64,000 bases of DNA from Longimicrobiales bacterium (GTDB taxonomy: Bacteria > Gemmatimonadota > Gemmatimonadetes > Longimicrobiales > Gaopeijiaceae). Positions within the stretch are counted from its first letter, which is position 1. Each line of letters starts with the position of its first letter. The DNA lies in contig CBDFIQ010000002.1 in NCBI GenBank assembly GCA_965248195.1, forward strand, positions 2,144,001 to 2,208,000. The letters run 5' to 3'. Below are positions 25,996 through 28,216 of the stretch, one piece after another. The translations under genes and the position numbers were made by a program. The notes beneath the pieces are model-generated. The model was not told where the DNA came from. It made no database searches and was given only the letters and a program-made list of their open reading frames with translations.

Positions 25996-26451
25996 CTAAT
26001 CTTCGCCCGGCTCCACCTGGATCTCGACCTCTACCTCGACCTGGCTGTGGAGCCGGACAAGCACCTTCGAGACCCCTAACAGCTTCAGGGGCTCCTCGAG
26101 CTGGACGATCCGGCGATCTACTTCGAAATCCAGTTCGCCTTGGTTCAGTCGATCCGCCACATCGGCGTTGGTAACCGCCCCGAACAGCCTCCCATCTTCC
26201 CCCGCGCGGACGTGGAACACCAGGGACGTGCCTTCCAACTGCGACGCCCGGCGGCGAGCCTCAAGGTAGTCATGCTTCGCCAGTTCCTCGGCATCATCAC
26301 GCTCCCGCTCCAATCTCCGTAAATTGCCGGCGCTTGCGAGGTAGGCCAGTCCCTGGGGAAGGAGATAGTTACGCGCGTACCCCGCCTTAACATCGACGAC
26401 GTCGCCTTGATCGCCGAGCCGGTCAACCGTCCTTCTCAGAATGAGCTTCAT
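25996..26451 (-). CDS. rplI: 50S ribosomal protein bL9
   Basis: MKLILRRTVDRLGDQGDVVDVKAGYARNYLLPQG, RLFGAVT. Confidence 0.97.
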   Translation of the reverse strand: MKLILRRTVDRLGDQGDVVDVKAGYARNYLLPQGLAYLASAGNLRRLERERDDAEELAKHDYLEARRRASQLEGTSLVFHVRAGEDGRLFGAVTNADVADRLNQGELDFEVDRRIVQLEEPLKLLGVSKVLVRLHSQVEVEVEIQVEPGED

Positions 26452-26465
26452 CAATCCTTCTCCAT

Positions 26466-27410
26466 CTACGATTTGCCCGCGGCGATTCCCGTGGCCTTCG
26501 ACCGGAGGTCGAGCCAGGTATCGCCGACACCTACAACCAGGGCGCCCATGATCAGCACGGGCGCGAGGAACAACATTCCGACTGCCAAGAAAAAGAAACC
26601 GAAACCCGTCACGCCTCCGTTGAGAAAAAGCAACACTGCGGCGCCGCGCATGGCGTAGAGCCCGCCCATGAAAACGACGGCGTTGCTCCCTGCACTCGTC
26701 CATCCCTCTCCGGCACCGAAAACGATCAGTGCGATCCCCGTCAATAATAGCCACACCAGATGATCATTGAATCGGAATTCGCGAAGTGGGCCTAATTCCA
26801 GTCCGCTCCCGGCCGAGAGCCTCACGTAGGCCCACCACGCAACCGCCAAACCCGACAGAGAGGATAACCCCAGAAGAGCCGGAAAAAGCCTTCCCTGCTG
26901 TGCCGCCAACTCGAAGAGCGTATTCAGTTGGGCGGTAGAGAGGGACACCTCGGAATCGACCGCCATGGACATCTGTGCGATGAGGCTGACACTCCGCATC
27001 TTCCCCTCGGTGATGAGCCAATTCACCATGGACCATGAACCCGGTCGGACCATCAGCAAGAGGCCTACGAGTGCGGCGGTCGCAGCAACCGCAGCGAACG
27101 CTCGAGGAAAGAACCGGCTCCGGGGCCACCGCATGGATAACACGACAAACCAACCGGCGAGCACGACGGACCACCCACGCTCCAGATACCAGACGCCACC
27201 GCACGTCGGTACTCCCACAGCCACAAAGACCGCCAACATCGCCGCTACCGCCGCAGGCAACCTTCGCAAACCGAGCACCATCGTGAGGGTGACGAAGGGA
27301 ACGGCCACCAACACCCCAGCACTGGACACGGAGAAGACCAGCGTAATGACCAGAAGAGCCGCAGCCCTGGGCCAGGTTCGCTCATCAGCCACCGCACTCG
27401 CCTGGAGCAA
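26466..27410 (-). CDS. DUF2232/YybS-like multi-pass membrane protein
   Basis: Many TM helices, LREFRFNDHLVW, GVGDTWLDLR; lies between rpsR and rplI. Confidence 0.75.
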   Translation of the reverse strand: MLQASAVADERTWPRAAALLVITLVFSVSSAGVLVAVPFVTLTMVLGLRRLPAAVAAMLAVFVAVGVPTCGGVWYLERGWSVVLAGWFVVLSMRWPRSRFFPRAFAAVAATAALVGLLLMVRPGSWSMVNWLITEGKMRSVSLIAQMSMAVDSEVSLSTAQLNTLFELAAQQGRLFPALLGLSSLSGLAVAWWAYVRLSAGSGLELGPLREFRFNDHLVWLLLTGIALIVFGAGEGWTSAGSNAVVFMGGLYAMRGAAVLLFLNGGVTGFGFFFLAVGMLFLAPVLIMGALVVGVGDTWLDLRSKATGIAAGKS

Positions 27411-27420
27411 CGGAATTTGT

Positions 27421-28095
27421 TTAGACCTCGTGATCTCGGATATACGGGATCAGGGCCAGAAAACGAGCCCGCTTGATCGCCCGTCCGAGCTGACGCTGAA
27501 AACGGGCGGTGACCTTCGTGGTTCGCTTCGGCAGGATCTTGCCCTGCTCGGTCATGAACTGCGAAAGCGTCGAGACATCCTTGTAATTGAGAAGCTCGAT
27601 GACCGGTCCCTCCATGCGGCGACGGCGTCCGCGACCTCCACTGAACTCCGGGGGACTGAAGCCCCTAGCACCATCATCCTCTTCGCTCGAGGGATCCTCA
27701 CCGGACCCACGATCCTCTTCAGCTTCCTTGTCGCCGTGGTCGTCATCATCGTCCGCGTCGGCGCGGGAGGGAGGCGCTGCCCCGAGCAGGGAGTGCCCAG
27801 TCGTCGGCTCTCCCTCATTGAGCACGATCAAATATCGAAGGAGCTCCGCGTCGAGCCTGAGCACGCGCTCGAATTCCGGAAGCCCGTCCACTTCGGCCCG
27901 GACCTGGGCAACGACGTAAAACCCGCTGTTCTGCTTCCTGACCGGGTAGGCCATTTGCCGCGTACCCCAATGATCGACGGCAACGACCTCACCAATTTTC
28001 CCGACCACCAGAGGATGAAACTTCTCTAGCTTCTTGTTGACGCTGTCCTCGTCGAGGGTGGCGTCGAAGATGTAGACGATCTCGTACAAGCGCAT
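27421..28095 (-). CDS. rpsF-rpsR: Fused 30S ribosomal proteins bS6-bS18 (224 aa)
   Basis: aa 1-~93 is bS6 ([27 protein letters not shown]); acidic linker; aa ~155-224 is bS18 ([39 protein letters not shown]). No stop codon between them. Confidence 0.93.
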
Positions 28096-28102
28096 GTCGA
28101 TT

Positions 28103-28157
28103 CTCCCACGGTCCGCTTGAAAATACGGGCTCCGCCGATCCGACGGAGCGGGATGAG
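28103..28157 (-). promoter_or_regulatory. S6:S18-type autoregulatory mRNA leader
   Basis: Minus strand: UCCC anti-SD, hairpin GCUCCGUC/GGCGGAGC, adjacent CCG, then SD GGGAG 7 nt before the ATG. Confidence 0.7.
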
Positions 28158-28216
28158 CCACCTAATATAGGCTGTGGCTCATTCTTGGGTACCCCGGTTG
28201 GCACCTGGGTGGGGCC

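Follow-up and report, generated by a model that had tools for sequence, protein, structure and literature searches.

Ribosomal proteins bS6 and bS18 are encoded as one continuous polypeptide in the window, by which we mean the whole 64,000-nucleotide stretch of Longimicrobiales DNA that was analysed, and the same single-copy, in-frame fusion is found throughout the bacterial family to which this genome belongs (f1). The junction between the two proteins is under selection at the protein level, and no internal start is conserved in front of bS18. These two proteins are normally the products of separate genes; they form the S6:S18 heterodimer of the 30S platform and, in the textbook account, pair before they bind rRNA. 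The reading that we favour, with a probability of about 0.7, is that the fusion is translated from the rpsF start and would enter the 30S platform as an uncut single-chain bS6-bS18.

A fused rpsF-rpsR gene

An earlier note on this DNA had described an uninterrupted 224-codon ORF carrying complete bS6 and complete bS18. Direct translation bore this out: the frame contains no stop and, a point absent from the note, it lies on the minus strand (Table 1). Both Pfam domains were detected on the one protein above their cut-offs, Ribosomal_S6 (PF01250) with E 1.1e-22 and 80.4 bits (cut-off 27) and Ribosomal_S18 (PF01084) with E 2.8e-21 and 75.8 bits (cut-off 21), and, as had been noted, neither ssb nor priB lies between them. 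When the whole genome (4.86 Mb in 2 contigs, 91.8% complete) was searched, its sole S6 match and its sole S18 match both fell inside this ORF. The gene start was placed at the ATG at 28095, where all orthologues begin with M/V-R-x-Y-E and just upstream of which GGGAG is found; a GTG further upstream, at 28161, was rejected as a start because the N-termini of the orthologues and the GGGAG place it at 28095. An H+-pyrophosphatase gene is located upstream of the fused gene. Downstream, the DUF2232 gene sits between the fused rpsF-rpsR and rplI, and the resulting order rpsF-rpsR / DUF2232 / rplI presumably resembles the yybS...rplI arrangement of Bacillus.

Table 1. Features of the fused locus and of its neighbours, in positions of the window.
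Feature	Position	Strand	Description
bL9, downstream gene	25999..26451	minus	L9 N- and C-terminal domains (Pfam)
DUF2232 membrane protein, downstream gene	26469..27410	minus	PF09991, 37.2 bits
Fused rpsF-rpsR gene	27421..28095	minus	224 codons plus TAA stop at 27421-27423; stop-free translation
bS18 module	27424..27615	minus	residues 161-224; Pfam S18 residues 169-216 = 27448-27591; without CX2C...CX2H
Junction motif (13 residues)	27616..27654	minus	residues 148-160; at the position of the free bS18 N-terminal tail
Acidic tether	27655..27783	minus	residues 105-147; reads as the expanded acidic C-terminal tail of bS6
bS6 module	27784..28095	minus	residues 1-104; Pfam S6 residues 4-91 = 27823-28086
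Candidate rpsF_leader RNA	28103..28153	minus	three-helix junction; outer helix pairs UCCC with GGGA of the Shine-Dalgarno

Distribution of the fusion

The family f1 consists of genomes labelled Longimicrobiales or Gemmatimonadota, and every genome involved in this work is metagenome-assembled (MAG). In a phylum-wide sample of 301 genomes, the in-frame fusion was present in all 48 f1 genomes. A single stop-free, full-length match was obtained for 31 of them; in the remaining 17, longer tethers split the match in two, and the fusion was confirmed by direct translation (243-345 aa). We also compared 40 relatives. The 23 f1 members with a match all gave it full-length and stop-free, while S6 and S18 appeared as two separate matches in the 16 genomes from two neighbouring families. 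Counting the window's own, 24 of 25 f1 genomes were matched, and one (G009, 88% complete) had no match at all. Translated directly, 24 f1 loci proved to be single ORFs of 207-243 aa. A scan with one genome per species brought 66 further loci, all from MAGs labelled Longimicrobiales, Gemmatimonadales or Gemmatimonadota. Among the 89 extractable loci, counted after exclusion of one partial locus (L090), S6 and S18 shared one stop-free frame at 84, corresponding to 73 distinct proteins; three of the other five run off their contigs and two are frameshifted. In these two (L094 and L096), the frameshift falls within or just after the junction and breaks the fusion frame; both are probably MAG errors. 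Recurrence of the same in-frame architecture at 84 of 89 loci and in every one of the 48 genomes is far more than chance would produce. Four unpublished genomes (G025, G095, G192 and G214) were counted only in the tallies of the 40 relatives, the phylum sample, bS21 and the Prp protease.

The fused proteins measure 206-345 aa depending on the genus, and the family spans at least 28 genera by assigned labels. Their genes come from complete long-read chromosomes as well as from short-read MAGs of many studies. Outside f1 the two proteins are separate: at all 21 translated loci of seven other families, S6 ends at a stop codon and S18 has its own start. Seven non-f1 genomes gave a single long match, and each of these contains 1-3 internal stops. 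In one unfused genome (G112), a TGA divides S6 and S18 in the same frame (149+1+73 = 223); as this case illustrates, open-frame length figures can span a stop, and fused status as given here rests on translations. The earlier note had considered that a stop in the linker of all close relatives, together with proteomics showing only separate S6 and S18, would speak against a natural fusion; in all 48 sampled f1 genomes the frame is open. The claim of a natural fusion is upheld by its single copy, by a frame that stays open family-wide despite in-frame length changes, by independent assemblies and by the absence of a conserved internal start.

Contigs from public sequencing runs were aligned to the locus. 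One contig of a run that is possibly the source sample (X1) is identical to the window over 27300-27831, and a run from a separate study (X5) covers 27426-28057 in three pieces without gaps and without indels in the tether. The only indel within the ORF among the public run contigs is an in-frame 9-nt deletion at 27730. It is carried by a 460-nt contig (27426-27856) from an RNA library, which runs from the S18 module through the tether into S6; as an RNA library can contain DNA, this contig is taken as no more than one additional independent copy of the open frame. In addition, X1 and X5 each hold one contig that aligns over 27485-27552 and then again from 28051, with a joint that skips 498 bases and short sides of 36 and 27 nt. 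Such contigs most likely come from a diverged relative that aligns only at its conserved ends, a deletion form being disfavoured.

A search of a 5.8-billion-protein collection returned 1796 matches, and the best 120 of these 1796 all carry both Pfam domains. JGI names for the fused protein are inconsistent, either 'ribosomal protein S18/ribosomal protein S6' or just 'S6'. Loss of bS21 was considered as a correlate of the fusion and rejected, PF01165 being present in 41 of 41 genomes, fused and unfused.

An acidic tether and a conserved junction motif

Throughout the fused family, the bS6 fold is followed by a conserved NEGEPTTG.S segment, an acidic stretch that varies, the junction motif, and finally x-EGP with the bS18 fold. 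The acidic stretch quoted in the earlier note is present in the translation. Between the S6 core and the motif, the 73 distinct orthologues have 38-86 aa (median 49); their tethers contain 41% D+E and 6% K+R and carry a net charge of -7 to -28. Other genera of the family extend the tether to about 190 residues. At loci L125-L140 (genera g27, g6 and others; L139 is an example), it changes from Asp/Glu-rich to Ala/Gly/Glu/Asp-rich low complexity in proteins of up to 345 aa, and the motif is kept.

In unfused relatives, bS6 also ends in an acidic tail made of E/D runs, followed by the stop. At 13 loci of the two neighbouring families, the S18 start lies 1-6 nt past the S6 stop or overlaps it; at 8 loci of more distant families, 0-117 nt separate the two. 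The solved E. coli bS6, its acidic tail included, aligns with the fused protein (query residues 1-137 against chain residues 1-132), and the ancestral S18 start Met, counted back from the conserved NYKD, aligns with the Ser right after PPEF. On these alignments, the linker is essentially the ancestral acidic tail of bS6 in a longer form, continuing into the basic N-terminal tail of bS18, with only a few residues adjacent to PPEF being new. This bears on two functional ideas put forward earlier. The first was that an acidic linker may shield basic S18; the linker is indeed acidic, but such a role is not specific to the fusion, since the bS6 of unfused relatives already ends in an acidic tail. 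The second, that the fusion fixes a 1:1 stoichiometry, is a reasonable inference, tempered by the fact that neighbouring lineages already couple both genes tightly.

The junction motif is near-invariant as a protein sequence; it had escaped the earlier note, as had the breadth of the zinc-motif loss and the leader RNA described below. Its codons vary freely: at conserved positions, Pro and Gly are each encoded by all four of their codons and Arg by up to six. Judging from this codon usage, the motif is under protein-level selection. In other genera it takes forms such as PP-[VIPD]-[FY]-[STA]-G-[AGV]-RGR.

Predicted structure and comparison with solved ribosomes

AlphaFold2, run with a 74-sequence alignment, predicted two confident folds joined by a low-confidence tether: pLDDT reached 93-97 in bS6 and 74-91 in bS18, against about 50 in the tether, and it was below 50 at motif residues 151-156, leaving the motif without a predicted structural role. 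The pTM of 0.68 bears only indirectly on the docking of the modules. In a Foldseek comparison, the bS6 part matched solved bS6 chains with a target-normalised TM-score of 0.91 and an rmsd of 1.6 A over 96 columns. Solved bS18 chains were matched at E 1.7e-16, with query residues 160-222 against chain residues 12-74, so that the match begins where the junction motif ends. Of the 122 distinct PDB sequences that matched, the best 60 each cover one half of the fused protein only. Compared with the separate bS6 and bS18 of E. coli, Thermus and Mycobacterium ribosomes, the fused family shares the folds, the RNA-contact residues, and the acidic bS6 and basic bS18 tails; it differs in having one covalent chain, whose bS6 tail is longer, up to about 190 aa in some genera.

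A physical tie between the same two proteins has also evolved in the human mitoribosome, where, in the accessible text of PMC11791143, bS18m and bS6m are bridged by a [2Fe-2S] cluster held by three Cys from bS18m and one from bS6m. There, a metal cluster sits between two chains, whereas the fused bS6-bS18 is tied by a peptide bond and has lost the metal site.

Loss of the zinc ligands of bS18

The bS18 module had been said to contain no Zn-binding cysteines. This is correct, and the whole 224-aa protein contains no cysteine. None of the 73 distinct fused proteins has the CX2C...CX2H motif at the aligned positions, where the four zinc ligands are replaced by Arg, Glu, Thr and Phe. In contrast, the unfused relatives have the layout M-(basic)-...C-x-x-C followed later by C-x-x-H. 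All 21 translated loci encode the second pair as CX2H, and 20 of them encode the first as CX2C; the exception, L032, has CX2S there. The complete loss of the zinc motif is, by this sequence comparison, a derived state of the fused form. Zinc-free bS18 is itself reportedly common, as Makarova and colleagues are said to have found in 2001. The accessible part of PMC11791143 describes CX2C...CX2H as the zinc motif of bacterial bS18 and notes Zn in the ribosomes of M. tuberculosis and M. pneumoniae. Relative to such zinc-binding bS18, the unfused Gemmatimonadota have kept the motif and the fused form has replaced all four ligands.

A candidate rpsF leader upstream of the fused gene

The 73 leaders collected in alignment A2 consist of UCCCGCUCCG, a variable hairpin, CGG(G/A)GCCCGU, a loop, ACGG(A/U)CCGAGGGAG and 5-15 nt to the start codon. 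RNAalifold folds them into three helices around a junction that holds an invariant unpaired CC (ACCGA junction). Pairing was found in 98.4% of the leader cells against 28-52% in slid controls, and double changes in 32 cells against at most 13 in the controls, the covariation lying mostly in two pairs of the middle helix. Unfused Gemmatimonadota relatives have a simpler leader upstream of S6, without the third hairpin. No Rfam match to the leader was obtained at the gathering score or at E up to 10; Rfam may hold no rpsF_leader family.

In the accessible text of Babina et al. 2015 (PMC4647458), the rpsF_leader is an mRNA structure that imitates the rRNA site and has two conserved cytosines; it is bound by S6:S18, which represses rpsF translation. 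The leader described here likewise lies directly upstream of rpsF, is structured, holds an invariant unpaired CC and has its Shine-Dalgarno paired, in fused and in unfused Gemmatimonadota. It differs by the extra hairpin (CCGU...ACGG) of the fused family, by the lack of an Rfam match, and by a putative repressor that would be one chain instead of a two-protein complex. From its resemblance to the published description, it is probably an rpsF_leader. On the protein side, K208 and R211 of the fused protein are invariant in 74 sequences and, mapped by alignment offset, align with positions 60 and 63 of the solved E. coli bS18. According to the same part of Babina et al. 2015, K60 and R63 of E. 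coli bS18 contact the paired cytosines of the rRNA and of the leader, and mutating these residues abolished regulation through the rpsF leader.

A terminator-like match at 28149-28129 was discarded, as it corresponds to leader helix P2 plus a U-rich loop that is specific to the genus of the window. Alignment A2 shows a conserved TAnAnT box, but a search for a sigma-70 consensus promoter upstream of the gene gave no match, nor was a -35 element identified.

Fate of the fused protein

The fused gene could encode a polyprotein-like precursor in which a protease cuts at or near the junction, for instance after the Phe/Tyr of PP-x-F. This would release free bS6 with its acidic tail and free bS18 starting with a Gly/Arg-rich tail, and the fusion would serve only equimolar synthesis. 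We consider this doubtful. It is true that the most conserved segment outside the domains sits exactly at the N-terminus of free bS18, as would fit a processing site, and that natural ribosomal-protein precursors are cleaved in eukaryotes, the accessible sources giving ubiquitin-eL40 and ubiquitin-eS31 (UBA52, RPS27A). Like the fused rpsF-rpsR, these are natural genes with a ribosomal protein inside a longer fusion; they differ in that ubiquitin is joined to one ribosomal protein and cleaved off, while bS6-bS18 joins two ribosomal proteins. On the other hand, an aromatic residue and an Arg/Lys run are also expected of an RNA-binding bS18 tail, so that the conservation needs no cleavage. The locus has no candidate protease gene beside it; its neighbours encode the H+-pyrophosphatase, the DUF2232 protein and bL9. 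A cleaved precursor also occurs in Firmicutes, where the Prp protease removes the N-terminal extension of bL27. No Prp-family protease (PF04327) was detected in the 41 genomes searched (25 from f1 including the window's own, and 16 neighbours), and this absence also argues against cleavage; as a control, the protease was detected in 3 of 14 other genomes, among them Bacillus, Thermotoga and Lactococcus.

If the chain stays uncut, its tether may do more than connect. PP-x-F...RGRRRR could be a new RNA- or protein-docking element that replaces the lost zinc knuckle; the polyanionic loop of 40 to about 190 residues, placed by the 16S rRNA 3' end and the mRNA exit, could tune initiation, hibernation or subunit assembly; and the single chain could by itself carry out the rpsF-leader feedback. 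The accessible part of PMC7797042 describes how, on the 30S platform of Bacteroidia, the anti-Shine-Dalgarno sequence is sequestered by bS6, bS18 and bS21. We regard such an active tether as unlikely.

A third possibility is that the gene yields two products, the fusion plus a free bS18 started at the ATG or GTG that follows the Arg run. The earlier note had judged independent initiation of S18 to be poor, pointing to the only nearby ATG, and its details are accurate: the ATG after RRRR is codon 161, with its A at 27615, and the nearest upstream GGAGG ends 19 nt before it. The orthologues agree with this judgement in that the codon is variable and a Shine-Dalgarno is absent. A start-capable codon occupies this position in the window and in 39 of the 73 distinct orthologues (ATG in 32, GTG in 7), but it is a non-start codon in the other 34 (GTC/GTT/GTA, CAC/CAT, ATC or TCN), and no Shine-Dalgarno-like motif lies 4-12 nt upstream of it in any of the 39 start-capable genes. 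The upstream Gly codons vary freely, so that no Shine-Dalgarno is conserved at the DNA level, and a bS18 started there would lose its conserved basic tail. Moreover, 12 of the 73 genes have no in-frame ATG, GTG or TTG from the S6 core to the motif, and in these the motif can be made only as a continuation of S6. As the motif is under protein-level selection, it is made by ribosomes that began at the S6 start codon. With neither a conserved start codon nor a conserved Shine-Dalgarno, internal initiation was rejected as a conserved route to bS18, and the production of two products from the gene is very improbable.

Two-domain S6-S18 predictions also exist elsewhere. When 1.84 billion cluster representatives were searched exhaustively, many matches in two stretches were listed at 30-40% identity (P0162-P0268), and 7 of 10 distant representatives examined are a single sequence on a single contig. 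With the proteobacterial-type P0178 as query, about 22 of the best 120 clusters carry both domains, nearly all of them single-member. The linkers of the two-domain relatives of P0178 (P0274-P0293 and P0314) resemble translated intergenic DNA, and the S18 start Met is retained. One scattered two-domain prediction is filed in UniRef under tsetse fly as 'bS6m'. By these sequence features, the scattered predictions are probably sporadic read-throughs or assembly errors, unlike the fixed and remodelled fusion of the Longimicrobiales. That an error of this kind, or a sporadic read-through, removed the S6 stop in the assembly of the window is refuted, such predictions occurring elsewhere notwithstanding, by recurrence across the family in long- and short-read genomes, by independent contigs that agree and by protein-level selection on the junction.

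Discussion

We return to the uncut single chain as the preferred reading. In the ancestor of one Longimicrobiales family, the rpsF stop and the adjacent rpsR start would have been lost and the two frames joined. One polypeptide would then be made from the rpsF start, consisting of the bS6 fold, a lengthened and disordered acidic tail, the Pro-Pro-x-Phe/Tyr...Arg-rich junction in place of the N-terminal tail of bS18, and the bS18 fold. We infer that this uncleaved chain is incorporated into the ribosome, where both folds would sit side by side on the 30S platform as usual and the tail would loop out into the solvent. Such a pre-formed intramolecular 'heterodimer' could bind as a unit, 1:1, to the central domain of 16S rRNA once this is primed by S15, and the same chain would probably repress its own translation through the conserved rpsF-type leader.

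Both proteins, their pairing, the acidic tail of bS6, zinc-free bS18 and the rpsF leader are already known. What appears to be new is a clade-wide covalent bS6-bS18 with a remodelled junction, apparently undescribed in print. Our full-text literature searches, with most subscription journals outside their reach, found no published account of a bS6-bS18 fusion, and the accessible part of the survey by Yutin et al. 2012 mentions neither a fusion nor S18. Databases already annotate both domains on one protein, and domain-architecture databases probably list the S6+S18 combination already.

The finding has a practical side, in that marker-gene pipelines expecting separate S6 and S18 genes will mis-score f1 genomes. 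A natural single-chain S6:S18 offers a system in which to study the cooperative assembly of the 30S central domain, and it allows asking whether one chain replaces the two-protein repressor on the rpsF leader. It also tests how far the enigmatic acidic tail of bS6 can be stretched, its length ranging here from 38 to about 190 residues with acidity retained. A whole bacterial family has made the S6:S18 pair covalent and has kept it.
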